The notes: a model not told the origin generated them from the letters alone. A stretch of DNA of 64,000 nucleotides from a virus (IMGVR_UViG_3300031539_000007:32001-96000); one strand, 5' to 3'; numbered from the stretch's first letter, positions 27,972 through 57,902 are shown. Numbers and translations are program-made.

Positions 27972-29036
27972 CTAAACAAGCGCCATCTCCAACTGTTCGG
28001 CATTAACCTCTGCGGCCTCTGGATAACGATAGCCAGACTCCTTGCGCAGAATCTCACCAGACATCCTCTCCATAGCTTCCTGGAAGGTCTCGCTGTCCTG
28101 TCGTTGCGCTACATAGGTAACAGCGTTGACGACATCCATCAGACGCGGTTCGCGTGCTCTGCCATACTCGCCAGCATTGCCAGTAGTCGCACCGACGGTT
28201 TCATCAATCACAGATTTAGACACACCATACTTCTTGGCGTAGCGCTCCAGTAATGGGCGCACTGTTTTCTGTTCGATGTGAATACTCTCGCTGGCGACAA
28301 ATAAACGGGCGGCGACCTCTGACATTTGTAGCGCGGTAGCCATTGCCGCCGCAATCATAGCCGCCATCATACTTTGGTCGTAGTAGCGATGGTTGAACAC
28401 CATTGCCTCTTTACATTCCCATCCAAATACCAGCCCGTTGGTACACACAGAGCGATATAGGCCACCGGCAATCTTCGCGCCACCATCACCAATCTCAGAG
28501 TTACGGATATAGACGCCCAAGTGCAGCCCGCCATACTTGTCCGACAGTTCAATCTCAGGGAAGAGCACGTAAGCACGTAGGTGGTCGTCAACACTCGGAC
28601 GGTGAACTACCGCGTGCGCACCGTCGATATGGTTCTCAAATAGCCCAACGAACCGGCTGTTGTCAAACACCGTGTACTCATCACTGAGTACGGCACGCAC
28701 CACATCACCCTTAGAGCGCACAAGATACTCGCGCCCTTTGCCAGCTTCCTGTTGCAGCATGCGATTAAAAACCTCTGGCTCGAAATCTGGCGGGCACTTT
28801 TTTTCAAGCCAGTGAATATCAGGCCCGCCAATGCGCCCGTTAAGTTGGCGGTACGCATAATCTGACAGATAGCCAGTTAGCGTCATCTCGCGCTGGAAGA
28901 GGGTGCTCGGAACGCGGTATCGCAGCGCCTTATCGCCTACGTACACCACATCTTTGGCGTGCGTGGTGTGGTCATAACAATCAACGGCGTACTCATCTAC
29001 GCTTTCTCGTAGTGCTTGCAGCGTGCTTGCGCTCAT
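27972..29036 (-). CDS. DUF932-like phage/plasmid protein
   Basis: VRAVLSD.Y..FDN, G..I.NSEIG.G, YR.VCTNGL, H; RBS GAGGAGG before ATG 29036. Confidence 0.7.
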   Translation of the reverse strand: MSASTLQALRESVDEYAVDCYDHTTHAKDVVYVGDKALRYRVPSTLFQREMTLTGYLSDYAYRQLNGRIGGPDIHWLEKKCPPDFEPEVFNRMLQQEAGKGREYLVRSKGDVVRAVLSDEYTVFDNSRFVGLFENHIDGAHAVVHRPSVDDHLRAYVLFPEIELSDKYGGLHLGVYIRNSEIGDGGAKIAGGLYRSVCTNGLVFGWECKEAMVFNHRYYDQSMMAAMIAAAMATALQMSEVAARLFVASESIHIEQKTVRPLLERYAKKYGVSKSVIDETVGATTGNAGEYGRAREPRLMDVVNAVTYVAQRQDSETFQEAMERMSGEILRKESGYRYPEAAEVNAEQLEMALV

Positions 29037-29521
29037 CGTGTGCCTCCTCTCTGATTTCTGGAATGAATCTCTTCGCAAAGTCATCAACCGGCCCACCGTC
29101 AATGACAAACATCCTCAAAATTGCCATCGCGAACGACTTGAGACCTGTGTGCTCTTTCGCCAATGCAATGGCAATGTCGCGGTCGCCACCTTCAAGGGTC
29201 GCGATCCACTCAGCAATCTCCTTCACGGCGAGCATTTACCAGCCTCCGACAGTGCGAAGATTACTGGCTCTGGTGTGTACGAGACACAGAAGAACTCATT
29301 GTTCACCTTGTACCCATGCTCAAAGCCAGCGGACTCACAAACATTGTCCAATGAATTCCCTGCAAGGGCTGTGCCGACAACCAGGCCAAACACAAAGACC
29401 AACGCCACGAGCGCCATCACAAAAGCAAAAACTCCACCGTTGTCTTCCATCGTTTCCCTCCTATCAAGTGATAAGCCAAGTATAGCACATACGCGCCGCC
29501 AGCATAGTGACAAACATCACG

Positions 29522-29755: not shown

Positions 29756-30043
29756 TTACAACCAGAGCCACGGATAGACGACACTGGATGGCCGCATAGC
29801 ATTGTGCCTTCTGTGGCCTTTTCTGTGCCAGCCTCGATAACGGCCAGCATAAGCTCGGCTTGCAATACAGCTCTCGCTATGTCGAATTCCCACTCGGCAA
29901 TACGCTGCACAGACGGGAAGAACAACGGGCGGATGACGCAGGCCCACGCTTTACCAATAAAGCCAATGCCGTACATAGTGTCCCTGGATTGCTCGTAAGC
30001 AGACCAGCTCGGCAGGCCAGACATCTTGACGGTGATTCCTAAA

Positions 30044-31441
30044 TTATTCAACCAGCTCATTGCCATTCTCCTTGTCATACGACGCACATTGTTCCCAAAC
30101 CTTCAGCATCTCTTCTCCGTGAGGCATGAAGCTACCCGAAATACGGGAGCTACCCATTCTACGGCCCGTCACATCAAATAGCGCTCGATTCACTTTGTCA
30201 CGCCCCCATCCATCTTGGACTGCATACAGTGCCACAACGCTTTCGGCATTGTCAAAGGGCAGCGGGGCTGGCCCCGGCTTAGTATCTAATATGTCCGCCC
30301 TGTTGAACGCGGGCCAAGATTTCATGCGTGGCTCGCCGCCCCCCAGCGCTTTGGCCTGGGCTTCTGATGTGTATGCTATCAACATCCGCGTTGTCAGTGT
30401 GTCGGTACACAAGTACGCATCGCCTGAGCCTGAGAGGAAATCTGCTCGCGGGCGCACATCGCCAACAATAGCTTCGCTCTCAAAGCGGTCGGACACATTT
30501 AAGGCCAGACGTACACCAAACTGCGCGCGTGTACCTTGTCCGCTATCGCCGAACATCTTTTGCTTGGGCGACTGCGTAGCGCATAGTAGGAAGATGCTCA
30601 CTTCGCGACCCATCTTCGATAGTAGAAATAGGAGGGAACTCACCGTGTCGTCAGCCATCGTGAACATATCAAAGTCGTCAAAGATGATGTACAGCGGCGA
30701 GAACTTCTCGGCGTCCTCGTCTGTGGCGTGGTTGCGCTCGCACATCAGACGATAGCACCATCCCAGAGCGTTGAGCACGCTTGCGCCATCTGTCGCCATC
30801 GGCCCTACCTGTCGCGGGAGTCCATTGATTACACCCAGCCCGCGGTTCCCTTTCCCGTTCAGGAGCACGAACTCGGCGTCTTCTGCAAGCACAAGCTGCC
30901 GCAGAATTGTCCAAGTGGCTACTGTCTTTCCAGAGCCGGTGCGCCCGCCGACAAGAATGTGGTGTGCTATTTGCTGGTTGAGTGTAACCACAACTGTCCC
31001 GCCACGCCCATCAATGCCGAGCGTGAAGCTGCGCCCCTTACCAGGTCGCTGCGATAGCTCTTCAAGGCCAATGTGCGTTGTTTGTAACTCTATAGGCCAT
31101 TGCGCCTCAATGTGCAGGCGTTTGCCGCTCCAATCAACGAGCGGTTCAATAGATGATACATCGTCTATCCAGGTGTCAGGGAATAGCCCGCGCGCCTTTG
31201 CGTTCTTCTGGGCGCTTAGGGCTTGGTACAAACGGTCGCCAGCGGTTCCTGGCTTAACACTGACAATCCCTGAGCGTGGCCCAGGGATGTACTTCAACTT
31301 CTCAATTGCAATTGGCGTTCCGCTATTAAAGGCGGGGTCTGAATAACACGCCGCCCACAACGCTGCGCCCAGACTGCCGAGCAGCTTCTCGCGCTCTCTG
31401 AGTAAGAACCTACGATCCTGTGGCATTCTCTTCCACAACAA
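30044..31441 (-). CDS. FtsK/SpoIIIE-family ATPase
   Basis: HILVGGRTGSGKT, LYIIFDD, GR...I.LL.ATQ.P, R.AL, G.GD; possible C-terminal HTH. Confidence 0.8.
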   Translation of the reverse strand: MLWKRMPQDRRFLLREREKLLGSLGAALWAACYSDPAFNSGTPIAIEKLKYIPGPRSGIVSVKPGTAGDRLYQALSAQKNAKARGLFPDTWIDDVSSIEPLVDWSGKRLHIEAQWPIELQTTHIGLEELSQRPGKGRSFTLGIDGRGGTVVVTLNQQIAHHILVGGRTGSGKTVATWTILRQLVLAEDAEFVLLNGKGNRGLGVINGLPRQVGPMATDGASVLNALGWCYRLMCERNHATDEDAEKFSPLYIIFDDFDMFTMADDTVSSLLFLLSKMGREVSIFLLCATQSPKQKMFGDSGQGTRAQFGVRLALNVSDRFESEAIVGDVRPRADFLSGSGDAYLCTDTLTTRMLIAYTSEAQAKALGGGEPRMKSWPAFNRADILDTKPGPAPLPFDNAESVVALYAVQDGWGRDKVNRALFDVTGRRMGSSRISGSFMPHGEEMLKVWEQCASYDKENGNELVE

Positions 31442-40493: not shown

Positions 40494-40593
40494 CGTAAGT
40501 GACTTACGGCGTGGGTTGTAATTGACTTACGCAGGTGTGTGTAATTGACTTACGTATGCTGGCGCTTACGGCGCTGGTTGTAATTGGCTTACG
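40494..40593. repeat. Iteron-like repeats (C/T)GTAA(G/T)TG(A/G)CTTACG, mostly 23-bp period
   Basis: Copies at 40494, 40517, 40540 and 40579, plus a partial GCTTACG ending at 40570. Confidence 0.75.
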
Positions 40594-40914: not shown

Positions 40915-40994
40915 TTCGGCGATTCACAAACCCTAGATGTGGTGGCCCTGCAATACAATGTCGCAAGGCAACTGCCATAGCAATACTAGCGTGT

Positions 40995-41022
40995 TTGACA
41001 TCTTCGCAGCGTCGCTTATAGT
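40995..41022 (+). promoter_or_regulatory. Rightward sigma70-type promoter heading the early-like region
   Basis: TTGACA-N16-TATAGT. Confidence 0.65.
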
Positions 41023-41906
41023 TAGAGTAGAAATTTTGATGAGTCGAGAGAGGCAAGGGGAGCAAGCAATGGCAACGATAGATAGAACCAGAGGCAAGGC
41101 AGCGGGTAAGGGCAAGGCAAGCAAAGCAAACCCGGTGGTTACCATAAGTAATGAGACTGTAGCATACTGGCAAGGGCGTTTAGATGATACACTGCGCACA
41201 ACTGGCAAGCACACCTTCTCACGTGGCGAGAAGCAAGGGATAAAAGAAGATCGCTTCTTTACCCGGTCTGGTGAAGATAACTATCGTAGGCCATTCGGTA
41301 CATTCGCACAGGAGTGAACTATGATAACTATAACGGCAGAAAAGGTAAGCGGAGATCTAGAAACTGCCATACTATATTGTACATACGCTGCACAATACTA
41401 CTCACATTGTCCATTCTGTATAAATGGACAGATACAGGAATATAGATATTTTAACAGCGACTTCCCGCAACACTTGCGGGAGAAGCTTATGCGAATTTTA
41501 CGCAAACTGTAACAATCTGGAACTAGTCCAGATTGCAATTCCCTCACATATAGGAGCTATTGAAATGAAACAGGTAATTTTGGCAATCGCGGTTGTAGTT
41601 ATTATGTTGACGTTAGCTTCACCAGTGCTTGCGTTTGACAACGCTTCGGATAATACAGTGTGCTCCTGCCCGAAGGGGAAGTGGTTCTGCTGGTGTCCAG
41701 TAAGCACATGGACGCCCGGAGCTATTAAACTGGGTGGCGCAACATGGTTTAAGAAAGTCTCCAAGTGGGCTTGGAACCTGGGGAAATAACTTACCACGTG
41801 GTACTCTAACATAGAGTATCACCCTATACCATACAGCATAACGTTGTATGGTATAGGGTGGTATTTTACGATCAAATTAACTTCCATAACACTATAGGAG
41901 ATTGCA

Positions 41907-42404
41907 ATGTTTCAAAATCAGGTGCGTCAACTAAAATCCGTAACAAAAAACGTCAACAAAGGCCAGGCGAAAGCCGCTGTTATCTTTGCGCAAGTCAAAA
42001 CGCAGTTTCATGACGTGAAAAAGGCCAACCGGGTCAAGTGGGAGTTCTCCAATTTCTCCGAGTTTGTCACGGCAACCGGTTGGGCTCCCTCCACTGCTTA
42101 CCAGTTGGCCCGTTGGGGGGCTAACGGTGGTGAACTCGCAGCATTAGCAGTGTACGGAATCCAACACATGCAGGCGTTTGATACTGTTCGCGAGTGTACC
42201 ACGCTTGACGCTTTCCTGGAAAAGTGTGAAGAGTTCCCGAACCCTTCGGATATTGGTGAACTGAAGTCATGGGCAGAAAGTGTGCAAGGCAAGGTTACAG
42301 ATAGGGAAAGCTTGGAGCGCGACATCGCCAATCTGGAGAAGTCTATCGTGAATTTTACCGCGAAGCTTGCCGAAAAGAAAGCCCTACTAGCGGCCCTCCA
42401 GTAA
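41907..42404 (+). CDS. Putative HTH DNA-binding protein with C-terminal coiled coil (DUF3102-like pattern)
   Basis: W.F.NFSEFV..TGW.PSTAYQL.R helix-turn-helix-like segment; heptad tail LERDIANLEKSIVNFTAKLAEKKALL; RBS AGGAG. Confidence 0.55.
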   Translation: MFQNQVRQLKSVTKNVNKGQAKAAVIFAQVKTQFHDVKKANRVKWEFSNFSEFVTATGWAPSTAYQLARWGANGGELAALAVYGIQHMQAFDTVRECTTLDAFLEKCEEFPNPSDIGELKSWAESVQGKVTDRESLERDIANLEKSIVNFTAKLAEKKALLAALQ

Positions 42405-42587
42405 AAAAACAAATAGCGCGCCTTCCCTATGGGAGGCTATGCGGCCCAGCGTGAAAATACTGGACAAACGACACGGGCACATGATCATGTGCCCGTGGTC
42501 ATTCTATGCTATGGACTACGAAAGTGTTCTATGGTATAGAATGGCGCATGGTATTGTACCATGACGCGCGCCTGCAAGGGGAAAAAA

Positions 42588-45500
42588 TTCTAGTCACTAT
42601 AAAACCCTTGTGCAAATTGGAGTGCATGACTTGTATATGGTCGGGCATGCAAGCGATTGCATGCCTAGATACTAGGGGGAGCGATGTCCGCCGATTAAGT
42701 CATGACAGTTGACCGGCAAATTTGACGGTCATGCATTGCAATTTGCACAAGGGGATTTTCTGGTAAAAGGGGAATGCCATGAGTATGCTGCTCGATCAGT
42801 ACTTTCCAAGGGATAACGGCGAAGCTTCTGTGATTATTGCCGAAGCATGCCACGGGCAATTTTCTACGCTCGGAAGGTTCAAGGAAGCGAAAAGGCAAGG
42901 GCTGGGCATGCCAAAAACCGTAAAAATTCAGGGGAGTCTGCCCATGCCTGTGAAAAAGTACCGGGCAATCCGGTACAATTGACTGAAAATTCTAGTCACT
43001 AGAAAGTCACGTCAAAAAAGGAGCTATTAAAATGAATACGTCGTACAACATTTCCAGCATGGAAGCACTCCGCGAAAAGAAAAAGAATGGATACGCGAAA
43101 GCCATGACTGCTTGGGGAGTCCCCGAATGGCTGCGCTTGCAGTTCTGCCAGCAAATCCGCGACACACACGATTATGGCGATGTGTGCGTCATCATGGGGA
43201 AAATTGACGCCTACTCGAACGCCGCAGGGCTGAGAGCATTTTACGAATATTCTAGTGACTAGAAAGGGGGAAAAATGTGTCACGTAACAAACCATGTGAT
43301 GGAGGCGCACGAGCGTCATCCTTTACTCAGGAAGATCATGAGCAAGGAAAAGTTCGCCTTGCTTATCAGTATAGTGTCACAGGAAAATTTTACGTGCGAT
43401 ATTGCCCTTGCCGTGTACGATTGCGGCGAAATTCTTTTGAATCCCACGCAGGATGAGCGTGGGAGATTTGTTGTTCTTATCGTGCGCAACAACAAAATTG
43501 TGTGCGCATGCCTATCTCAGCGTCTCGACGCGCGCCACTTGCGCGTCGAAAAAGTTGTGAAAATATTCTAGTCACTAGAAAAAGGAGAGCTTGTAATGAC
43601 TATGTTTATGAAGTTTTCGCGGGGTGGAGTGTTTGAAGCGGCGGAGTTTGGCGCATACAACATGATTCCGACCGGTGAACAGGTAGCTCCACCTGTCGCG
43701 GGTGACGTTGTTTTTGTGTCCAACTATGTACCCTCCTGCGACTTTAGCGGGCAGGTAGGGAAGATGGCCGCCGCAGAATCAAGAGGTGCGGCGGAGTGGG
43801 CCGCAAGTCACGGGCTGCGGCTTGTATTCCGGGGGTTCCCCGGAGCGAACATACGTAACGCTGAGGGGTGTATGCCAGCGTTGCTTTCCGTCTAAAAACT
43901 TTCTAGTCACTAGAAAAAGTCTAGTGGCATCAAAACCCTTAAGGAGTATTAAAATGACTATCCAACGCACCAAGACCGAAAAGAAGTCCGGCACATCGTT
44001 TTCCGTCGGGGTGAATATCATCCTGGCAGGCAGTAAGGCCATGACGCCTGAGCAACAGGAAAAAGCCTTGACCGTGGCGAAAGTCCGCGTCCTTATTGTC
44101 GATGCTGACAACCCTAAGAACGTCCTGGTCGATGAGACCGCACCGGCACGCGAATTTTCCACGGGAAGCGTGGGCTATGGGCTGAATATCCGTAGCGCAG
44201 AATTCAAGCAGTAGTGGTGTGCCCTCGTGCCACAGCGAGGGCGATCAATTATTCTAGTGACTAGAAAATTTTAGGAGGATCGGGATGGAATACACTATCG
44301 AGTTCAAGGAACACCTGGCGAAGAGTCTGGCGGGGCATATCGCCAGCAGCGCGGCCACTGGGCCGTACTCCGAGGTGCATTGTGTTGTCTGCGGGCGTGT
44401 GGGCGTAGTCGCCTACAACTACGCGGTCGAGAATCCCGGCGTGTGGGCCTGCGCCTACTGTAACACGGGCTAGAACTCTTCTCCTGCCCATCATCCTCGT
44501 GATGGGCAGGCACGGAGAGAAAAAGGCGAAAATTATTCTAGTGACTAGAAAGGAGAGGAGAGCTATGAAAATTCAAACACTGTACGACCTGCGGGAACTG
44601 ACAGGTTTTGTTAGCGGGACGGACTTGCAAGATATGTTCCACGAAATCTTGGGGGAGATGTCCCCAAGTGGCAATTGTGAAATAGGCGCCGCCGCACTTG
44701 CCAGTAACGATGTGGGCAAAGAGGCTTTGCGATTGCTAGCGGCCCCACTGGTCGACGTCATTGAGTCAATTATGACATACGGAATGTCTTGAAAGCTAAT
44801 ATTCTAGTGACTAGAAAAGGAGTGTTTGTTATGGATAAAATTTATCTCGCCTACTACATCAGTAGGCGTGGGCATCACAAAGAAATCTTATACGTTGGGA
44901 CAGACAAAAACGCCGCAATATCTCGCGTTGAAAGCTTCTGCGGCAGTAACATGTATGCCCAGGAATTCCTGGGCTGTGTGGAGACATGGACGGCGGGGCG
45001 ACGCATCCTGCTGGAAAGGGTTGTCTGAATATTCTAGTGACTAGAATTCCCTGGCCGCCACGAGCATAGCGCCGTGGATCACGCTTGTAGTCATCGGCGC
45101 GAAAAGTGCCGGGGATTCTAGTCACTAGGAATCTTTTGAAAGGAGAATCATGATTACAATCAAAGTGGATGGGATTATCACGGTCGATACGTTTTCGTTC
45201 GAGGATGCGGTCGATATGATCGTAGAGGCGCTGGAAAAGTACGGCGTCGAGATTATGGCCGTGTATGAAAAAGTTGAAAATTCTAGTGACTAGAAAAAGT
45301 CACGAAGGAGTATTATGAACAAATGTTATACACAGAAGCGGTATTCGACATGGTATGGGGCGGCGAGGTCATTGCCGAAGAACCTGAACTCGTCGCTAGG
45401 CCCGCCCCACTTTTCAGTGGGCGATAGGGTTATACAAAAGCGCCCGGTGTGTGGCGAACGGCTAACCGGCACGATTATATCAGTCGTTTATCCGCCACTT

Positions 45501-48500
45501 GTACTTGACGGCGCGCAACTATTAGTGGCGGGCTACGAGGTGCAATGGGATAATGGCGACCACTGCGCAAGCGTGCGCGAGCCGTATTTGACCAAGATAA
45601 ATTCTAGTGACTAGAAAAAGTCACGAAGGAGTAACATGTACAAAACCGTTGGGGACATCCCCGAAGATTATGTCCTGGTGCAGACAGACCATGAGGTTCA
45701 ATCTGTACTTGAGTACATCGGCGTAACCGAAAATTATCCTTATGTGTTTGTCAAACTTGACGAAAGTGGCGCTGATTATCTGCACGTTTATGGGTGCTAC
45801 AGACTGTACCTTGGCGCTCCTGTTTACCAGGAACTATAAGGAGTATTATAATGTGGCATTTTACAGAATCACTTGTTGGACAAAGAATGCTGGTAAAAGA
45901 AACACGCGCCGAAGTCTTTTTGACGGGCCGCCGCGTCTATGACGGCAGTGTGTATATTTACGAGACCGACGCGGGCAACTTCCTGGGGGAAGAACTGTGC
46001 CGCGTTGGGTCAATTTAATTCTAGTGACTAGAAAAAAGTCACGAAGGAGCAACATGAAAAACATTGCTACGGTTAAGGACGCGCTGCATAACGCAGTGCT
46101 TGAAAAGTCTGACTACGCTCGCGGTATTGTCGTGGGCGTGGTGGCTGCCATTATGGGGCAAAAGGGCTGCTTGTTTAAGACCGCCCTCAGAGAAGTCAAG
46201 CAGATGAAACCCGCAATCCATATCGAGAATCTGCCAGAATGCTGGCGTGAAGACTGGATGAAACTCTAGTCACTAGAAAAAAATCTCAAAAGGAGAATAC
46301 AATGGCTGCACATATTTTGACTGGTATCAAACAAACGATTAAGATGCTGCGCGAAAACCCCGAAGCGGCGAAACCGCACATCGTCTGCGCCTGTGATTTG
46401 TCCTGCTGGACTGAAGACGACACTCATGTGTGGGGAAATCTCTACGACTGGACACAAGGGAGGCTCGCCACAAGCGCGCTCATCGAGTATCTTGAATTCC
46501 AGGTGTGGCACTTCTGGGATTTGTACTACAAACTTGGCGAACCGTATACTCGCGAAGAGTGGAATCTGTCACGCTTCCACGGGCTTGAGGCACTCGCAAA
46601 ATATCGCGACGAAGAAGACTCCAGGACACTGGCTATGCTTTCCGCAGAGAAAACATACATCCGACCAGGCGAAAAAGTCCTGATGGAATGTGCTTACTCT
46701 GAGGCTGCAATGCACCTTGGCGTGGCTGGCAAAGTGATGACTGTCAAGCTGCTTGAAACCGAATACCCAACGGCGCAACTATACCGCCGCAACGGGGAAG
46801 AGAAAAGCTTCCCTATCACTTACTCTGAGGCCGGGTTCTACCAGGACGAGGGTGGATTCTACTACTACCCGAAACGTTCTAGTCACTAGAATAAATGTCT
46901 ACTCATCTCTGAGTAGACAAAGGAGCAATATGACTACTGTTAAAGTTATCAACACTCGCTACAATCCACGCGGCGCGAGCGTCGTCGTGGAAGCAAAGTT
47001 TGACCGCTGGACTTCGTATCTGGAAGTAAGCCACGACCAGCCATGCGGGTATAACTATCGGCGGATGCGTCACGAAACTGACCCGCTTGCCGATTGGGTA
47101 CGCCTTGAAACCGCCGAGCGCGACATCACAGCGGAAGGTGTGCGCCTGGCGAAAGACGCCATTATCGTGGCCGACAACTCTATGGAAGAGGCGTGCCGCT
47201 GGTTCAAGTACTCGCAGCTATACGAAACAATGCAGGCAGTCGTCACGGAGACCGTTAAAAACTACCAGGATGATTTCTACCTGCACGATTGTACACGTCT
47301 CGGAATGGCGCACCCATTCCCCGAAGTGCTCCGCTGGTACGTTCGTGAGAGCGGAACGTTTTTGTTCTTCGGAGAAGAGGTCGGCGAATGGGAATGTGCT
47401 GTGCGCAAACAGTGGCCCGACGCCCGCATATTCCGCTATACCTCAGAGGACGGACTGGCGGAAATTTCTAGTCACTAGAAAGGAGATTGCGATGACCGAC
47501 AAAGAGATACTTGAAAGGTTATGTGCCATGCTCAACGGTATTACTAAAAAGTTCGGGGTAACACTAGCGGTTGTGGAGATAAAAGGCACGATTTACTTTT
47601 TCCCTCAACTATCTTCTAGTGACTAGAAAGTTTTAACAGTGTGGTGCGTCACTGTTAAATACGCACCGATTTCATTCATTCAAATAAAGGAGACTTACGA
47701 TGACCTGCATAGGAACAACCGCGACAACCATAGCGAAAAACTCTGTGACGTATCACGAAACGACAGTCGTTGCATTTAGCAGCGGCACAATCACCCTCGA
47801 CAGCGGGGGATGGAGAACTGTGACGACCAAGAAGCGAATGAACCAGGCCAGCACTGAATTCGGCCTTGGATACAGCGTCTTTCAGAAAGACTTCGGCTGG
47901 TTTGTTGACCTTCCGAATGGCGAGACCGTTGACTTCAAAGACGGGATGACTTTTAGTCGGTAAAAGATTCTAGTCACTAGAAAAAGGAGCATTACGATGG
48001 CTAAGGAAAAAGTTGTCAGAATTGGTACTGTTGATTATTACGGGAAAAGGGTTAGCGTGTTCTGCGAAATCGGCGTCAAGAATGGCGAGCTATCAATCAC
48101 CGGCGTCGTCGGGCCAAAGCGAAACGGTGACGCGGAGGGCGGGTGCGGGCAAATAGACCTGAGCGAATATTCAGGGTGGGAATTCGCTGCTGGATGGGAC
48201 AAAGAAACACTTGACAAATTCACGGACGTGTGGGCAAGATGGCACTTGAACGACATGCGCCCTGGCTGTGAGCATCAGCGTGATTGGGATACTTCAGAGA
48301 AGATTGGAGTCATCCAATACACATATACCGACCTATACACAACGCTCTCCAAGATGGAGAAAACTATGCCGGAACGTCTAACATCACTAGACAAAGAAAA
48401 TCTTGCACTTGGCAAGAAAGCGTTTCGCGCCTTCCTAGGATACGGTAACGGCACACGGGGAGACGTGCTTGAAGCATGCGAAGCAGGACTACTCAGGACG

Positions 48501-51500
48501 TGTGGCATCGAGGAAAAGCTTGCTGGATGGGTATACCCAACACAGCACGAGAAAGGCTTACTCACAAAGCCATGCCCCGTATGCGGTTACAAGTACGGTT
48601 CTGCTTGGCTCAAAGAAGAGTTACCACAGGACGTGTTTGACTTCATTGACAATTTACCGCACACTGACATCGCATATCCGTGGCGATAATTCTAGTCACT
48701 AGAAAATAAAGGAGCGATATGAACGGGTGGACTTACAATTACGGGGAAGAGTACGACGAACGTGCGCAGACTTCCATACTCGGTGAACCAAGCCGATTGA
48801 TGATGTGCCTAACACACGACGAGCTGTGCAATATGCAGACGGCAATCGTCGTCGAAACGTGGGAACACTTCGTTGGGCGAGACGCGGCTGGTAGCAAGCG
48901 CCGAAAATATCACGCCGAGTTCGACGAGAAGGAGCGCAAGCTGGCGGGTAAACTGCACACCAGGTTCTACCGCTGGCATCTTGTAACTGGCGTGCCGCAG
49001 AAAGTCGTTATGTCTGCACGCACCATCAGCTTCGTCGAGAGGCTGGTAGCGTTCGCGGCGACAGTGTAAACAATCTAGTCACTAGAAAAAAGGAGCTATT
49101 AAAATGACCGAGTTACAGGATTTGACCAAGAAGGCTTTGGTTCGTATGGTAGAAGTGCTAGAAGCGTCCCTGAAAAGCGCGCTGGATAACTCTGCTTTCG
49201 CGTGGCGTCAACATAACGCACTGCGCGTCGATTTGCAGCAAGAACAAAGCAAGACGCACAGCCTTGACATTGAGTGCAAGCTGGCATTCGCGCTCTCTGA
49301 AAACCGCAGGTGGGAAGATGTTGCCGCCGACATCGTGGAACAGGAACGCGAGATGTGGCACAATGCCTCACTGCTCCACACGAGCATCGACGACGACGAA
49401 TTAGGGGACAAGTTCGAGACGGCGCTAGAGCTATACGTCCGTGAATGGGTTGGCGAGAAAGAGCGAGAGATTCTTGAAAAGTTTGGGCGCAGCGTCTCTG
49501 TCTATCAATACGGACGGGGCGGGGCAACCATTTCTATAGATGGCTTCTACAGCGAAACATACCGGCGTGGTGCAAGCGATGCGAATATCCGCTACTTCGA
49601 TAACGACGACCTGGACGAAGAAGAATTGATCGCCTATTACAACGAGGACGTTCAAACCCTTGCTATCCTGGAATGGCTTGACGAGAAGGTGCGCGAAACA
49701 GTACGCGGCTTGCCCGAATGGTGGGTAGGAGAACGCGAGTATTGGACTGACGGCCTCTACACACTGTACCCGCAGTGCTGAGGGAACGTGCTTGGCGCAC
49801 TTGAAATGATGGCGTTGTAATTTTCTAGTGACTAGAACAAAGGAGAACAAGTAATGTTATCAGAAAGCAAGTACAAAGAACTCCGCGAACGGATAGACAA
49901 GCATTACGCTTGGCTACAAGCGCGCGATTTCAAACCATACAAAACAGAAGAATGCCCACAGGTATTGCGTGTGACGAACGAGGAGTATGGTGCTGTAGAA
50001 GTCTATGAATGGCACAATGACCCGCCAGACAAATACTTCGCTTACGTGAAGGTCGGGTGCGTGTATGTTGATGGTGTCGGGACATACGAGGCCACGGTTA
50101 CAACATGGATGGGAGATACCATCGGACACGCTGGGCTTGGATGTAAATATCGCTCCAACTTCGGTGACATCCGCGTCCCCATTTCTGTAACTGGGACTAA
50201 CGACAAGCACTATTACGGAACGTACTACAAGTCAGCGGGTGATTATTGCCGCCTGACTGCATACAAGGAGGCCCGCAATGGGTAGGGGTGTGGCGTTTCC
50301 GCACAGCGACGGCGCAGAGCAAATCATTGTAGACGTGCCATTCTTTGATGATGACGAATATGGCGAAGAGAAATCGTTGTGGTTTGACGACCTGAGATAC
50401 CGTGTTAAACACACGCTGCCAGATTCATTCTACTTCGATGATGGCGTGGGGTGCTTCTGCTGGGAATGGAGTAGCTGCTTGCTCAAAGTGTCCCTACACG
50501 GCGAAGACACACTGGCACACATTTACATCGAAGCGCAAGAACAAGACGAGTTCCAGCATCACAAGAATCTCGCTTGGAATCACCTTGATAACCTTTACAA
50601 GAAAATCGGGAAAAAGTTGCAAGACTACGGGTATGAGTTGCGCCAGCGCACAAGCTCGTGGACAACTGGGCATCTGGATTTCTAGTCACTAGAAAGTGTG
50701 GGGCGTGCGACTCCACACTGTCATTCACAGAAAGGAGACACATGGTGTATGTATGTTTGTCCGGTACGCTCTACGAGAACAACGTGTGCGGTGATGTGTT
50801 TGTGCATACCGTATACACAAGAGAGGAAGACGCGATAGAATGGAAGGAATACTGCGACCGTACATCACAGAGGTTGGAACGTGTGTACTGGGTTGCGGCA
50901 GTTTCTAGTCACTAGAATAAAAGGAGACTCGTAATGGATACGCAAATTAAACGTGTTGTGTCTAGCAGTAGTTGTGCCACGGTATACGAACTCGAATGTG
51001 GATTACGCCTACGCTATTTTATTATTGTCACAGGGATACCTGCCCTTGAGTACGACGACCATACATTCCCGAAAAGATTCGATGTCATCGACAAATATAA
51101 TGTAGCGTGGGACAGAGCGCTCAAGCGGTATCCGTTCCAGAAGGACGGAGAACACCCAAACGTCGAAGAGATTGGCGGGCAAGCGACAATCGACGAATAC
51201 ATTGCAGAAACCTATTCAGAGAAATTGCTCAGCGATATTCCGTTACCAGAAAGCACACCGCCCAAAAAAGAAGCACTGCCAATGTTTAGCAATCCGACCC
51301 TAGCCAACCGATTCAGAAAAGATTTTGATATGCCACTGCTAACATTCACCGACCGCTTAATGACACGTATCCGTGGTTCATTCTCGTTTGATGTCATAGC
51401 GTTCGATGGATACTGCCACGAAGCCCTGGGGTATAGCGAGGACGAGCACGGCAGCCTCAACGATTTCATCACGGCGAAGTCAGGGAAGGATATGGCAGAT

Positions 51501-54500
51501 TTCTTACGAGGTCTGCTGTAGCAAAGGAGTACCGCTATGGAAATTATTAGGGTGTGCAAGCAAGGATACAACCCCATCGAATTGCGCAACAACGATGGGG
51601 TGTGGGAGTACGCCGTCGGAACGTATCTGGATGGGAGCAAGCACTGGGTGGCGATACCCCTATTAGAAGAGATTATCTTGCAGACCATCGAAGAATACAA
51701 ATGTGTCTAGTCACTAGAAAGGAGACTAACAATGTTTAGCGAAACACAGAAGAACCAGAGAAACTTAACGCCCGAAGAGAAGGCTGTAGTTGATGAGCAA
51801 TCGCGTATCGCCACCGCCAAGTACAAGGCAGTATGGTACGGCGATGACGGTGGGTACACGACGAGCGATGCGTACAGGAAAGCCAGGGGCGGAAAGAGCG
51901 TGCGCTATGGCAATGAACTGCTTGACTGCGCGCTGGCTTTGTGCGGAGACCCGTGGTACGTGATGACGGGCCGCCACTACTGCCAAGAGGCACGAGACTT
52001 CTTGGCGCTGTTCGAGCAAAAGGAGACTGACAATGTGGGCTAAATGGGTAGCGATAGAGTTTGACGAAACCGGATACTGGAATGAGGACTTCTTGGAAAA
52101 GTACGGCATCGAGAAGGTGCGCGCCGTGTACGTCTACAACGAAAATCTGTACGTGCATTGCTGCGAAATCACTCCGAGCTATGAGCTATGGTTTATCAAT
52201 GATTATCCCGTGATGAAGAGTGAGGCAGATACAGGGCGGGAGGAAGCATGGGAAGCAGTGATGGAAGCTTCCACTGAACCAGTAGAATACCACCACGTTC
52301 AACACCTTGACCGCATTCCATTCGGGGAACACAAGAAGAGAATGTGGAGCGAGAATATTAAGCGCGACGAGTACGATGAGCACAGAGACGATGCGATTGA
52401 GAGCGAACGCTGCAATGGCTCTTTCTGTTAAACATTCTAGTCACTAGAAAACAATCCCTACTCAAAGATGAGTAGGCAAAGGAGATACACGATGAAGAGC
52501 ATATATATAAAACTTACTATCTGCATGTACTGGAAGAGGGCAGACGGGGGAGAAATTAGCGACGGCGTTCGCGAAATTCTCGATGAATCCGGCACTGATA
52601 GGGCTATCGCCATGATTGGCGAGGGATACACGTCAGGCGAACTCAATGATAACATCCGTATGCACGACGACGACCCAGAAGACGGGATTGAGTACACCGG
52701 CTCGTGGAAAACAGCATACGAATCTGGAGGCACACGATGAACATCAAAGAACGACTCGAATATCTGCGCGGAGAAATCCTAGCAGAACGGATGAGTTATG
52801 GCGACATCGTAGAGCTTGAATCACTCGCAGAACATATCGGCGATGATGTCCTGCTCTTAGAATGGGCTGGCGTACCTGAATTCCCTGACGACGAATCCTA
52901 GTCACTAGAAAGGAGAATAGCAATGGAAATCAAGAAATTTGTTGAGCTAAACAAAATCACGATGCAATCAGAAAATGTTTTGGCGAACAAGAACATGCCC
53001 GACTGGGCAAGCGCCAGACACTACAAGGCCGTATTTAAGTACGGCAAGCGACAGATGACCACATACTTTTCTATGGGCCTCGGTCTTATTGATGCCCCGA
53101 CAGTAGAAGATGTGCTGGATTGCTTGGCGTCCGATTCTGCGGGTGTCGAAAACGCCCGCGACTTCGCCGATTGGTGCAACGATTATGCCTACAACCAGTA
53201 CGACAAGAAAGCCGAGAAAACATACAAGGTTTGTGTGCGTCTAGCCGAAAAGCTGGAAACGTTGCTTGGCGAAGGGTTGTACAACGAACTGCTTTGGGAA
53301 ACCGAGCGGCTGTAAATCACAATTAACCTATCCAAAGGAGATACACGATGAAACAACAGGTTATGTTACTGGTAAACGACGACAAGAAAATATACAAACT
53401 GCCGCTGTTAGCGAGCGTGTACAACGGGCTGGCCGTTCACAAATCATTCACCATTGAGGATGGCACGCTTGTCGAAAGAGATAAGTACTTTACTTGGGAT
53501 GTCAGCCACGTAGGTACAGGGCTGCATATTGACGGGTGCGATTTCAGCAGGAAGCGCGATGCGGTTGCGTTTGCGAAAGCGTTGTCCAAAGGTGTAGACC
53601 TTGACACAGATTCGCAAGCTGAGGCTATCAAGCGCATCCTTGAGAAGTACACCCGCGAACAATGTCTTGAGATGCGGAGCGCCGCAAGGGTAGGGAAGCT
53701 ATGAGAGAGAGCTTTGAAACATTCGCAGAGTACATCGTCGAAGAAGTGAACGAGCTAAACGAATCAGGGAAGATGACTGATGCGCAACTGCAAACACTTA
53801 CAGGAAATCTGGTGAGCACTATGGTTGAGAGCTTCGTCGAGAAGCCCACCGAGTACGACTACGACGAGCTATCGACTGGCACAATCCGCGAAGGGTTGCG
53901 CTTTCTTGAAGATGGCATCACCACCCACTTCCTATCACGCATTTTACCAGAGGCTATGGTCGATGCGGTCGTTGAAACCCTTGAAACAGTCTTGAAAGAA
54001 CGCGAGAAGAGTCTCGCCAAAGGAGCACAATGAGAACCATACAGCAAATCGAACGCAAGGCCAAGGCACTAATCGCCGCGTATCGTGAAGAGGCCAGGAC
54101 AAAAGGCTACAGCGAGAACATGGGCGAGAAGTACATGCGCCAACTCGACAAGCACGTTGGTAACTTTTATGATTACGACTGGGACAACAGGCGACAGATT
54201 CTATCTATTACAGAAGACTTGGAAAGAGTCGTCACAAATCCATAAGGGAGAATGAATAGCAATGAAACGCGAAGGGAATACCTATTGGAATATGAAAGGA
54301 AAGTATCAGGAGTACGCTTTCGCAGTCAGTGCGCTTATCCCATACAAGGGCAAGGCCAGTAATCTGCACCTCGACCTGTTCAGAAACACGGTACGCCTAT
54401 ATCACGACTACTACACCAATGGTGGCGATAACTTCGGGGATTGCTTTTACCTAGACCTCTACCATCTGATGTATCACGCCGACGAACTAGAGAGCGTGGC

Positions 54501-55408
54501 GGTTGACGAAGGCGAGCCGCTTATCAGCAGACTTCTTGAGCGCATCTTCGGGGGGTTCGGCGGCAAGGTAGTTTTCAACGAGAGCCTTACCCATAACCTT
54601 GAGAAACTAGCTGACATTGTAGCACGCTATGCTTGGGAAAAGGAGCACAGCAATGACTGAAACATACACCATCAAAATATTAGCGGGTGGCAAGCGGTTT
54701 GACATCTACGTGTCGGACAACGAGCTTATGGAAACCGAAATCCTGTTCGAGTCCATTGACGGCGAGACCGTCGAGTTTGAATTGTGGGTCTTGCTAAACG
54801 ACGAAGACGAAGTGATGCTTGTAATGCAAAGCGGTGATAAGTGTCACTTCACAGCCGAAGCTTTTCGAGATAGTATCACAGGTGAGGTCAAAGCAATGGC
54901 CTCACAACTCACGGCAAAGGAGCACGATGAGGAACACGACGAGCGAAAGAGAGACGGCAACAATTAAAGCTCTTTATGCGGCAGCGTATGATGCCGCAAT
55001 CTTTCTGAGAGCACAAGAAATAAGGGACATCGTAGAAAGCGCGATTTATGATAACTACGATGACTACGACGCTATGTTTGAAGATTGGTGAAAAGGAGAA
55101 CTAACAATGACTGCACACGGGGAACAACTTAAAGCACTGGTACAGCAAGCACTCGACACTCCGCCCTCGGAACTCGAAGAGTTCTACAACACGCTGTCGA
55201 ATGCGGCATACAGCGAGGCCGCGCAGGAGCTTAACGCACTCGCCCAAGCCGCCGCGTTGCGTGCGGAATACCTAGAGAATATGCGCGACGGTGCGGGGCA
55301 CACGCAATCGGCGAAGCTTGCCGTGTGCGTGCTCAATAAAGTACGCAAGGCAATGGGCTATACGTACAAGAAAAACTTTAGTTTCTGATAAGTTTCTAGT
55401 CACTAGAA
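42588..55408. repeat. Array of 27 15-bp palindromes TTCTAGT(C/G)ACTAGAA delimiting small genes
   Basis: Starts at 42588, 42990, 43250, 43566, 43901, 44252, 44536, 44802, 45032, 45116, 45281, 45602, 46019, 46264, 46877, 47466, 47614, 47968, 48690, 49073, 49823, 50680, 50903, 51705, 52435, 52896, 55394; 21 perfect, 6 with one mismatch. Confidence 0.95.
43032..55388 (+). other. About 35 small hypothetical genes in the palindrome-delimited units
   Basis: Examples: 43032-43262, 43275-43571, 43596-43895, 43954-44214, 44285-44473, 44565-44792, 44831-45028, 45150-45293, 45315-45614, 45636-45839, 46054-46269, 46302-46889, 46930-47478, 47492-47626, 47700-47963, 47997-48689, 48719-49069, 49104-49781, 49854-50285, 50278-50685, 50742-50915, 50934-51521, 51537-51710, 51732-52043, 52033-52431, 52492-52740, 52737-52901, 52923-53315; most have an AGGAG-type RBS. 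Confidence 0.8.
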
Positions 55409-55716
55409 AAGGAGATTGCGATGGACGAGAAACAACTTCTAAATAATATCTTGTTGGCTCAGAAGAGAGCCGCTGAATTTATCGGAAAGCAAACGAAGCT
55501 TATCGCTCTGTTGGTAGGATTCGCGCCGACTCAAGTTGTAGAGTTCCCGGAACTCGATGTAATGCACGTGTACTCCACGCCGTTCGGTGCGAAGGTAGGT
55601 ACTCCGAACGAATACACACTGAGAATCGGAGAGACATCAGCCACGTGGGTCGGTGGGCAGCACCCGTGGGGGGGCAAGCTCAGAGACATCACCGTTGACT
55701 TACAAGGAGATACAAA

Positions 55717-56034
55717 ATGATTCACGAGCAATACACAAAACTCAAAGACGAGAATCCCAACGCCTTGTTGCTTATGAAGCTTGGCGACTTCTACGAGGCG
55801 TTCGACAAAGACGCCGACCAACTCGCGGAGGCGTGTGACCTGACAGTCACAACAAGACGCAATAGCCCTAACAAGGAGTGGCGGATGGCAGGCTTCCCGT
55901 ACCACTGGCTTGAGGGAAACATCAGGAAACTCTTGGATGCAGGGTACACGGTGGCAATTGCCGAGCAGCGGCCCAGCGACGGCGGGCGTATCGAAAGATA
56001 CGTTGAACGGGTTATCAGAAAGAAAGGAGACTAA
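55717..56034 (+). CDS. Stand-alone MutS domain I (mismatch-recognition domain) protein
   Basis: QY..LK...P.ALLL..LGDFYE.F..DA...A....L..T.R...MAGFPYH.L...I.KL...GY.VAIAEQ...IER.V.RVI. Confidence 0.88.
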   Translation: MIHEQYTKLKDENPNALLLMKLGDFYEAFDKDADQLAEACDLTVTTRRNSPNKEWRMAGFPYHWLEGNIRKLLDAGYTVAIAEQRPSDGGRIERYVERVIRKKGD

Positions 56035-57902
56035 CAATGGCAAATTGGATCGTATTGATATTTGTAGTGGCTTGCGTGATCGTCATCGCGCTATGCCTTG
56101 AGTAACAGCGTGACTAACCATATAGGAGAAAACGAAATGAAACAGCTAGACTACGCATTGAACGCAACGTACTTGGACGCCGTTGAAGGGGAGCGCGAGC
56201 AACAGCTCGATTGGATTGAAGAGGCCATCCAGATTCAACGCAACCGCATTATGGTTAAGCGGCTGCGCGCCGCCGGGGTTGAGTGCTATAGCGAGACACA
56301 CCACGGCGATATTCACCTCTGCTGGAACTACATCTACGTTACTATCCCTGGGCAGCGCATACCGGCGACCATCGCCGAATGCAAGCGCTTGCTTGACACC
56401 ATCCGCAATCTTCCGGTAGACATCGCGCTCGAACGGTGGGCTACAAAAGTAGAGCCTGTCGAAGCCGAGGAGTACACCGAAGATATGGCTCGCCGTGATA
56501 CCCGCGAAGCAAGGGCACAGTTGCGGCGCGATGTGGCCGCTGGCGATATTTCAGCAGATGCGTATGCGGATTTGTACCGCACGACATCGTTCATGGATTT
56601 GGCGCAGGTATGACATTCGACATCCACTACCAGGATGAATGTAACTATCTTGGCAGTGGATGTGTGCTAGAGTAAGAATTGTGGGGCTGGACAAGCCAGG
56701 CCCACCACAATCAGGAGGATGCTATGAGAAACATTGACGTTTGGGGAAAAATGACACGGCAAGAGCGAGTGGCTTACGCGGAAAATCAGGCAACGCAGTT
56801 CGGTGGCAATGCACGCTCAGACCGCCACGTAAAAGCGTGGTTGGCTGAGGTCAGAGACAATCCCCACAATATGAATATGGATCGATTCGAGGCTGCGGTT
56901 GCCCAGGGCCTCGAAATTCGCGCAGAGATTGCAGACCAGATTTAACAAACTCATAGGGGGGCTGGACAAGCCAGCCCCCATCACCACAAAACGGAGGATA
57001 TAATGGCAACGTGGGATATTTACGAGGTTACGCTTCTGCGCGTACAAGATGGAGACGTGATTGTCGGTGAGGCCGACAGTCCTACAGGGTGGGTGGCCCG
57101 CGTCAGCCAAGACGACCTTGTGTTGACCGAGGATGAACGCGCGTGGCTTGAACGCGAAACGCTATAACCCTTCCCCTGCTCATCACCCGTTCCGGTGGTG
57201 GGCAGCGTAGGGGCGCAAGCCACAAACTAACAGTATAGGGAGGATTGACGATGAACGAACAGGAGAAAAACGCATCGCGGGAGCGGTATCTGAAAGTTTT
57301 GAGAGATATGAACGAGGCTGTTGAGGCTGTGAAGAGTGGGAAGATGACACTGGAACAGGCTCTTGAACAGGAGAAGGCGACCCGCAATAACGGAAAGGCA
57401 TAACTCTTCCCCTGCTCATCACGACAGGGGATAATCTAAAACGAAAGGAGAAAACAATGGACGCGAAAAATATGCGCAAGGCAGCTAACGACGAACGATA
57501 CCGCTCGCTCATCGACCTAATCTTCGACCGAGCACTGGATGGGTTTGATAACGTTTCAGTGGCCCCGATGTGGGTTGCGGGCATCAAGACGCGGCTGCGC
57601 AAGGCAGGGTACACGCTATTGAAGTGGAGCGGCAGGCTCGACGATTGGGAAGGCAACTGGGTAATGATTTCCTGGGAAGGGAAGGAGAACTCGAAATGAG
57701 GGGGAAGAAGTGTAGGTTCTGTGAATCAACCGATGGCCTTTATGAGATTCCAGAGGAGGGATATGTCTTAGGGCATGTCTGCGCAAGGTGCTGGCACGCA
57801 ATCACACACATCATACAGATGTTCCTAGACGCAAAAGACCGCCTTGCGGCAGACGACTACGACTATTAAACCCTACTCATCTTTGAGTAGGAAAGGAACA
57901 CA

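Follow-up and report, generated by a model that had tools for sequence, protein, structure and literature searches.

The window analysed here is a stretch of 64,000 nucleotides, bases 32001-96000 of the 113,043-base record IMGVR_UViG_3300031539_000007 (G000) of an uncultured soil phage, rated 82% complete. It holds an early-type block of about 45 small plus-strand genes (40937..57167), called by their ribosome-binding site (RBS) and start codon, with the RBS of the AGGAG type. Most of the genes are ORFans. The block follows a divergent regulatory gap with two near-consensus sigma-70-like promoters, predicted by a consensus scan alone: TTGACA-16-TATAGT with a match of 11/12 at the block head (40995..41022, plus strand) and its divergent partner (40172-40145, minus strand). 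A 15-bp palindrome, TTCTAGT-S-ACTAGAA (TTCTAGTSACTAGAA), recurs at the gene junctions between 42.6 and 55.4 kb, and the role of this site is the subject of the present study.

The site core CTAGTSACTAG occurs 26 times exactly in the window (42992-55396), and all the copies are confined to one 12.5-kb block of the small plus-strand genes. The whole 113,043-base record holds the same 26 cores and none beyond, while the reversed pattern, used as a control, has no match. The 13-mer TCTAGTSACTAGA, with one mismatch allowed, is found 27 times in the window, whereas 100 shuffles average 0.07 copies and never exceed 1. Besides the 26 exact cores there is a degenerate extra copy at 42589, which is the first site of the array (42588..42602) with one arm mismatch. 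Contigs from four DNA sequencing runs have the identical sequence and no structural variants at the sites, and their assembly breaks coincide with the repeated junctions.

The 11-bp core is invariant in 26 of the 26 copies and its centre is T-S-A in all, with C at 16 sites and G at 10. The two centres are not significantly clustered along the array, with 11 runs versus about 13.3 expected by hand calculation. Positions +-6 and +-7 differ at few sites and do so without compensation between the arms. Past +-8 there is only a general A-richness on the coding strand. TAG triplets at the 15-mer positions 4-6 and 11-13 close two of the three frames on either strand, as the preliminary description of this DNA had stated and as the sequence itself shows. 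In the G-centre variant, the TGA is in frame with the first TAG.

Twelve genes end on a TAG inside the site, and all the 12 ends listed in that description are borne out by the RBS-based gene model. Seven of them end on the second TAG and share the tails SSD or SSH before the stop. They are 43032-43262 at the site 43250..43264 (centre G, SSD), 45150-45293 at 45281..45295 (G, NSSD), 45315-45614 at 45602..45616 (G, NSSD), 46302-46889 at 46877..46891 (C, SSH, followed by a hairpin and then the RBS), 46930-47478 at 47466..47480 (C, SSH), 47492-47626 at 47614..47628 (G, SSD, with a hairpin after) and 50742-50915 at 50903..50917 (C, SSH). The other five end on the first TAG of a C-centred site: 43275-43571 at 43566..43580, 46054-46269 at 46264..46278, 50278-50685 at 50680..50694 (hairpin after), 51537-51710 at 51705..51719 (outer mismatch) and 52737-52901 at 52896..52910 (outer mismatch). 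The gene 45315-45614 is flanked by identical 35-nt junction copies (45278-45312 and 45599-45633), which contain the two sites there and encode the NSSD tails of two unrelated proteins, and a third near-copy lies at 46019.

Ten further genes stop 0-9 nt upstream of a site, the same number as claimed before, eight of them within 43250..52910 and two (42982 and 55388) outside that range. TAA directly abuts the sites 46019..46033 (centre G) and 48690..48704 (C). The gap is 3 nt at 45032..45046 (G), 49073..49087 (C, outer mismatch) and 52435..52449 (C, hairpin after), 4 nt at 47968..47982 (C), 5 nt at 43901..43915 (C) and at the last site 55394..55408 (C), 7 nt at 42990..43004 (C) and 9 nt at 44802..44816 (G). 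The remaining four sites are 37-87 nt past the upstream stop. They are 44252..44266 (G, 37 nt, with a hairpin between and 18 nt to the next ATG), 49823..49837 (G, 41 nt), 44536..44550 (G, 62 nt, directly joined to the RBS) and 45116..45130 (C, with one outer mismatch, AGG). The last one comes 84 nt after 45032..45046 with no called gene between them. This gap (45046-45116) has only a 15-codon GTG frame, which ends on the first TAG of the second site, and may be a decayed or emptied gene slot.

The site also often runs into the RBS, again in line with the preliminary description. A Shine-Dalgarno (SD)-like AAGGA or AGGAG starts no more than 3 nt from the site end at 12 of the 26 sites and 4-12 nt from it at seven, and is farther or absent at seven. 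The SD lies outside the site, 0-37 nt downstream, and the next start codon is 10-27 nt from the site end at 20 of the 26 sites. Between 42.9 and 55.5 kb, 25 of the 36 gene junctions have a site, and the 11 site-less junctions, six of them overlapping gene pairs, still have their own RBS. Hence, the RBS is a module in its own right, which the site only adjoins.

Other short sequences are repeated at these junctions. Strings of 15-18 nt that span the RBS to the start codon are found in nearly identical form ahead of unrelated genes (41552, 43019 and 49091; 52479 and 53335; 51718 and 52019), including palindrome-less junctions, so the translation-initiation regions are homogenised independently of the site. 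Similar hairpins CTACTCA...TGAGTAG stand between the site and the next RBS at 46896-46919 and 52457-52476, and other GC-rich hairpins precede the sites at 44254 and 44538.

No site lies fully within a called gene, and 12 overlap the last codons only. Among the sites distant from one neighbour gene, four stay near the RBS and six near the stop, so the constraint is to be intergenic and not to be at a stop. TAG is an ordinary stop in this phage, ending 46 of the 148 rough gene calls outside the block. As the gaps are about as long as a site and an RBS together and the site has TAG in two frames, open reading frames (ORFs) ending on the site TAG are expected from compaction. However, of 25 junctions only three have the upstream ORF in the frame that the site leaves open (one-sided binomial p=0.015), and the other 22 have it in a closed frame.

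The same element is found in a second phage lineage. An IMG/VR scan for the 15-mer yields 50 stretches, and several copies are present in only four contigs (G001-G004). G001, with 39.6 kb, 99% completeness and 11 cores, is a T7-like podovirus that encodes a single-subunit RNA polymerase (RNAP), a gp2.5-like single-stranded DNA-binding protein, a primase-helicase, a DNA polymerase and T7-type structural proteins, and the fragments G002-G004 are 78-97% identical to it. Nine of its 11 sites are in the early region upstream of the RNAP gene, one is directly after that gene and one is before the DNA polymerase gene. The 25-kb late region has no site even at four mismatches. The G001 sites lie between the stop and the next RBS, TAA directly abuts the site four times, and several sites are downstream of sigma-70-like promoters as read by eye.

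Two other scans return little. Among the matches listed in a metagenome scan for the 16-mer, one locus has two cores, one of them poor. A genome scan for the 19-mer of site and RBS gives one single-copy match, in a cyanobacterial metagenome-assembled genome, while about nine chance matches are estimated.

Further relatives of G001 were found via the polymerase, with RNAP identity of 77-83% and GC content of 0.53-0.60. They reveal the general form TCTAG-NNN-CTAGA. CTAG-NNN-CTAG occurs 51 times in 11 clade loci versus 1.75 expected from the base composition, and the element persists across the clade GC range of 0.49-0.60. The clade centres comprise 14 different triplets, and asymmetric ones are present both ways within one genome, for example TCG and CGA in the locus L214. 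The outer arms are symmetric and lineage-specific, being GGTCTAG...CTAGACC in the GC-richer phages and TTCTAG...CTAGAA in G001 and the window.

In ten comparisons of orthologous sites within G001-G004, 2 of 150 site bases differ, and both are central ones. The 30-nt flanks of the same sites differ at 99 of 600 bases (Fisher p=1.6e-8, with pairs that are not independent of each other). The aligned orthologous sites all retain their positions. Thus, the arms are conserved while the flanks diverge, and the element is under purifying selection. Its decay is seen as well, in two copies of the locus L208 with one arm mismatch each.

The preliminary description held that DNA placed between two sites gains a stop and a nearby translation start, as expected if foreign or de novo ORFs are captured at the site. 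This is partly supported, as exchange at the junctions is real in this family of elements. Between the clade loci L208 and L209, whose flanks are 82-96% identical, two adjacent genes are replaced by unrelated ones, 133 versus 132 amino acids (aa) and 97 versus 68 aa with no similarity. The homology passes the first site and its RBS and stops at the start codon. It returns as a 30-nt island of 96.7% identity comprising the site, the RBS and ATG, with unrelated genes on both sides. The right boundary of the replacement is a sigma-70-like promoter and not a site.

At this right boundary (L208 5075-5095 and L209 5299-5319), the unrelated proteins share the tail PP[IV]D[NK]S before the stop, because the conserved -35 region of the sigma-70-like promoter overlaps both 3' ends. 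This is the same tail-sharing effect as that of the palindrome, brought about here by a promoter.

Between G001 and G003, the homology is lost right after the site 26923 and its RBS. Elsewhere in G001-G003, the gain or loss of one gene and the insertion of another took place at overlapping junctions that lack a site, and the indels not bounded by sites number three. The unique early genes of the T7-like clade adjoin a site in 8 of 10 cases, as compared to 11 of 13 for all the G001 early genes, which is uninformative since the site density is so high that being next to a site says little. For G000 itself, no relatives are found in the phage collection by megablast with 10 kb of the block, and viral contigs contain no close relatives of two block-side proteins.

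The alignment of homologues, proposed before as a check on the capture claim, could be carried out for 46302-46889 and agrees with it. The 195-aa protein of this gene is the sole block protein with many homologues, 347 at E<=1e-3. It is conserved up to YYYP, after which come KR and the site-encoded SSH, and the tails of its 21 aligned homologues all differ, being unrelated or stopping at once. A homologue is also carried by another phage, the locus L174, behind its own, different palindrome, so the junction belongs to the resident genome and not to the gene.

In the 195-aa protein, two domains are fused that many other phages have as separate small proteins, residues 1-94 matching proteins of 95-100 aa and residues 113-193 those of 80-110 aa. 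The palindrome of L174 (IMG/VR, a 12.2-kb locus) is the 11-bp GTAATWATTAC, which is present 12 times in 12 kb and several times in the order of stop, palindrome, RBS and start. Another locus, L196, has a palindrome of 14-16 bp (GATAAACGTTTATC) four times. Phage-specific junction palindromes appear common around this small-gene family.

The part of the earlier claim on de novo ORFs finds no support. When codon usage is scored with 35 long genes of this phage as the training set, 44 of 45 block ORFs come out positive, versus 47 of 121 antisense open frames of the block. Such native codon usage argues against fresh de novo or recently imported DNA.

That the site is mainly a recombination joint for foreign or de novo ORFs, in an integron-like manner or like the promoter-early stem-loop (PeSL) cassettes, has several observations in its favour. 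They are the L208/L209 replacement with the site and RBS junctions kept, including the 30-nt island, the G001/G003 homology break, the shared NSSD tails made by the identical copies around 45315-45614, the absence of paralogues in the block and of homologues for most of its ORFs, the excess of the site-closed frames and the differing tails of the 46302-46889 homologues. We still consider this strong form unlikely and do not favour capture as the purpose of the site. No tyrosine recombinase or integrase (PF00589) is found in G000 (82% complete) or G001, while the control search is positive in 14 of 14 genomes, and homologous exchange would have little to work with in 15 bp. The RBS does not come from the site, as the 11 site-less junctions also have it, the right boundary of L208/L209 is a promoter, the G001-G003 indels use overlapping site-less junctions, the aligned orthologous sites stay in place and the codon usage is native. 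Moreover, the strong selection on the arms across RNAP identity of 77-83% implies a function in every infection rather than in rare exchanges. Exchange is more plausibly something that follows from a conserved functional site than what the site is for. Nor does copying alone account well for the site. A selfish or neutral mini-palindrome spreading by copying or gene conversion would agree with the exactly identical copies, the three near-identical extended junctions in a row and the RBS-to-ATG strings likewise repeated between unrelated genes, but the arms are kept at the orthologous positions while the flanks diverge. It would also have to persist across the clade GC range from 0.49 to 0.60, occur in two unrelated lineages and be strictly limited to the intergenic gaps of the early block, so we think this explanation very unlikely.

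The conserved function could be exerted on RNA. A stem-loop in mRNA, with a 6-7 bp stem and a 3-nt loop, would stand before each RBS as a processing or stabilising signal or as the target of a translational regulator. The 3-nt centre is free as a loop would be, the location is always a transcribed intercistronic or 5' leader position beside the RBS, the higher-GC relatives have the stronger stem (GGUCUAG), and the clade distribution around the RNAP gene may recall the placement of the RNase III sites in T7 early RNA. However, the stem sequence itself is conserved with no covariation across 66 distinct sites, the mismatched variants are mostly not wobble-compatible, and the arm departures are independent. 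The isolated hairpin is weak (-3.0 to -3.7 kcal/mol), competing folds win at many sites, and the predicted probability of the key pair in context is at least 0.9 at only 9 of the 26. Furthermore, the ribosome terminates inside the stem at 12 of the 26 sites, and no Rfam family is found at or near the sites, the four weak matches at E<=1 being elsewhere and far below the gathering scores. An RNA stem-loop is thus possible but not favoured, and its chance seems low to us. The function could also be that of a promoter for the phage single-subunit RNAP, which the T7-like G001 encodes. All the 11 G001 sites have the same coding-strand centre (two-sided p about 0.001), and the hexamer TCACTA of the C variant is presumably present in the T7-group promoters too. 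This hexamer is, however, missing from most of the relatives' sites, the would-be specificity positions vary and flip within the genomes of relatives, and 10 of the 26 G000 sites have the opposite centre. The site differs from the T7-group promoters in being symmetric with a variable centre, and 9 of the 11 G001 sites are upstream of the polymerase gene with none in the 25-kb late region. No PF00940 or other single-subunit polymerase is found in the 113 kb of G000 (82% complete), with G001 as the positive control, and the residues of the T7 promoter-reading loop are not conserved in an HMMER alignment that is uncertain in that loop. With no site at the late G001 genes, centres that flip and no such polymerase found in G000, we regard a promoter for a phage polymerase as highly improbable.

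In our view, the site is best explained as a cis element with dyad symmetry that a symmetric, sequence-specific protein, dimeric or tetrameric, would recognize on double-stranded DNA, and we hold this explanation as a whole to be about evenly balanced between right and wrong. Invariant symmetric arms, a free centre and independent degeneracy of the arms are the classical footprint of a symmetric DNA-binding protein. G:C is found at +-7 in 16 of 29 sites, as independence predicts. The sites are located downstream of sigma-70-like promoters or within operons and not over promoters.

The symmetric protein would recognize the arms TCTAG/CTAGA with a 3-bp centre, extended in G000 to TTCTAGT-S-ACTAGAA, and it may be encoded by the host or the phage. 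The element would be kept in the narrow gap from stop to RBS across the early operons transcribed by the host polymerase. This would probably allow one protein to act on the whole block simultaneously, for example to shut off the early transcription by stoperator-like roadblocks. With gaps of about 25-35 nt and TAG in two frames, the upstream ORFs would come to end on the site, and the supply of stops would be a by-product of compaction. Being the sole sequence common to unrelated neighbour genes, the site would then serve as a crossover point in the early gene replacement.

Several points weigh against the DNA-binding protein. The lack of overlap between the sites and promoters is unlike the classical operators, and no binding protein is identified. 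The shortage of the open frame is not predicted by a pure by-product model, although it is not repeated in G001 (4 of 11). No proteins common to G000 and the clade are found by blastp at 1e-4, the best E of phmmer --max between them is 0.06, 33 clade family profiles have no credible match among all the G000 ORFs, and the comparison of 193 G000 proteins with 550 clade ORFs gives a best E of 0.0027. With no shared proteins, a phage-encoded reader would need undetectable divergence and a host-encoded reader would have to be assumed. Lastly, the data expected from a symmetric protein hardly differ from those expected from a conserved stem.

The occurrence in two lineages without a shared protein makes a host factor an appealing, though unproven, candidate. 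The arm extensions, which differ by lineage, would suit co-evolving proteins of the phages as well as orthologous factors from different hosts. We tentatively suggest, while thinking it rather improbable, that two soil phage lineages converged on the palindrome via one host-encoded symmetric reader, which would make the site a host-specific standard junction and a safe seam for gene swaps.

The 15-mer is absent from the literature searched, and the 11-mer appears there only in eight papers with titles unrelated to phages. A literature search on phage intergenic palindromes with stop codons finds nothing closer than the works on the PeSL, Cluster O, SAS and stoperator elements. The site array belongs, as a variant not described before, with the conserved junction repeats known from the early regions of phages, among them PeSL, the Cluster O repeats and the start-associated sequences (SAS). 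Its most unusual feature is the occurrence in two lineages without common proteins.

The PeSL cassettes of T4-type phages are about 100 bp and comprise a sigma-70 promoter and a terminator hairpin, according to the portions available of Arbiol et al. 2010 (PMC2839356). As far as those portions describe, both PeSL and the present site are short conserved regulatory junctions repeated between the small ORFans of a hyperplastic early region, and both bracket unrelated genes with the same motif. The junctions bound gene replacements between close relatives in PeSL and, in some cases, in the elements studied here. The site differs in its size of 15-17 bp and in having no promoter hexamers, no U-tract and only a weak hairpin. 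A promoter scan finds no -35/-10 pair at the sites whose transcript would include the RBS, and the few matches that use TAGAAA of the site place the -10 over the start codon. In place of a terminator, the hairpin of -3.0 to -3.7 kcal/mol is followed by A's and not by a T-run. The ORFans are bounded by the element for the two genes of L208/L209 and the one G001/G003 break, but not for the three other indels. Further work on the PeSL cassettes is reportedly that of Comeau et al. 2014.

The Cluster O mycobacteriophages, Corndog and its relatives, have 17-bp dyad repeats, 5'-TGTTCGGNNNCCGAACA, and for this 7-3-7 repeat the authors predict a dimeric DNA-binding protein and give the function as unknown in the sections available (Cresawn et al. 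2015, PMC4351075). The same sections describe a gene flanked by a 17-bp direct repeat, other than the dyad sequence, that is single in the relatives (PMC4351075). The likeness to those accounts consists in invariant inverted arms, a variable 3-bp centre, dozens of copies, no meaningful orientation, as is also found here, and lytic-looking phages without an integrase. The Cluster O repeats, as far as described there, are genome-wide with about a third inside genes and have another sequence. All the present sites are in one early block, abut stops and RBSs, and are never fully intragenic.

The Cluster K SAS is an asymmetric, oriented 13-bp repeat, 5'-GGGATAGGAGCCC, that contains the SD and stands 3-7 bp before the start, as the accessible text of Pope et al. 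2011 (PMC3203893) has it. There, SAS and extended SAS are found in the non-structural genome half only, and their reader, of the host or the phage and RNA or protein, is given as unknown (PMC3203893). It resembles the present site in being a repeat just upstream of start codons. In addition, the legend of figure 14 in PMC3203893 marks upstream termination codons within the repeat, so there is, at least in that legend, a precedent for a repeat that supplies stops and abuts a start. The present element differs in being palindromic and in having the SD as a separate module outside.

The Cluster A stoperators are many short sites in small operon gaps and are thought to stop transcription when bound by protein; they lack symmetry, point along the direction of transcription and bind a temperate phage's repressor, as outlined in the parts at hand of both papers (PMC4351075, PMC3203893). 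The resemblance to them, within those outlines, is in the proposed mode of action, one protein on many gap sites. Unlike them, the present site is symmetric, no repressor or integrase is found, and the phages look lytic. The scans of the block against Pfam and PHROGs in particular contain no repressor family.

The integron attC cassettes share only the look of the array with the block, that is, co-oriented, promoterless and unrelated small ORFs with an imperfect palindrome after each. Compared with attC, the site is much shorter and has an invariant sequence, no IntI-type recombinase is found in G000 (82% complete), and no attI or common-promoter arrangement is identified.

The proteins of the block give few clues to their functions. 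There are no paralogues among the 45 block proteins, and searches of a word index for homologues of three block ORFs matched each query to itself only (3 of 3). Of 46 proteins scanned, three are above the Pfam cut-off, namely DUF6839, a Kyanoviridae Gp96-like protein and a MutS domain I protein. The 41 block ORFs among these 46 have five PHROGs families, all of unknown function.

The 165-aa protein at the array head (41907-42404) was considered as a reader of the site. A helix-turn-helix and a coiled coil are seen in it by eye only, and we make no claim for it. It has no Pfam or PHROG family and no relative in PDB. There is a weak Atlas lead, DUF3102 on 24% of one cluster, and its AlphaFold model (pLDDT 41.7) is too poor for a fold search.

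Both phages have weak DUF932 matches below the Pfam cut-off, at 27972-29108 on the minus strand of the window (E 1.4e-4) and at 29777-30490 of G001 (E 4.6e-4). In the clade, the genes of the DUF932-like family follow a site and immediately precede the polymerase gene. No direct similarity is detected between the G000 and G001 DUF932-like proteins.

Two other repeats lie close to the array. Directly past the degenerate first site, 42602-42755 is an inverted repeat with 26-nt arms that are 92% complementary, and it folds as a stem-loop of about 150 nt with -78.3 kcal/mol (z=-7.3 versus shuffles). Its loop contains a CTAG-ATA-CTAG of the general type at 42665, and the structure may represent a small RNA or serve regulation at the array entry. 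In the divergent gap, 40503-40593 has three direct repeats of about 29 nt (CTTACG...GTAATTGACTTACG type) beside the strongest sigma-70-like promoters, and these are possible iterons or regulator sites.

The phage early regions have the fastest turnover of host-takeover and anti-defence genes, and how phages stay viable during this turnover is poorly understood. The element is a clean case of a short conserved junction that is selected in its own right and doubles as a gene-replacement boundary, and by its sequence it terminates translation from upstream. Its presence in two lineages without shared proteins is a handle for finding the reader protein. If the host-reader view is true, each early cistron would be wired to a host factor, and the two-frame stops and the adjoining RBS would make the exchange or insertion of early genes safe for phages of that host. 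The element could then link uncultured phages to a common host.

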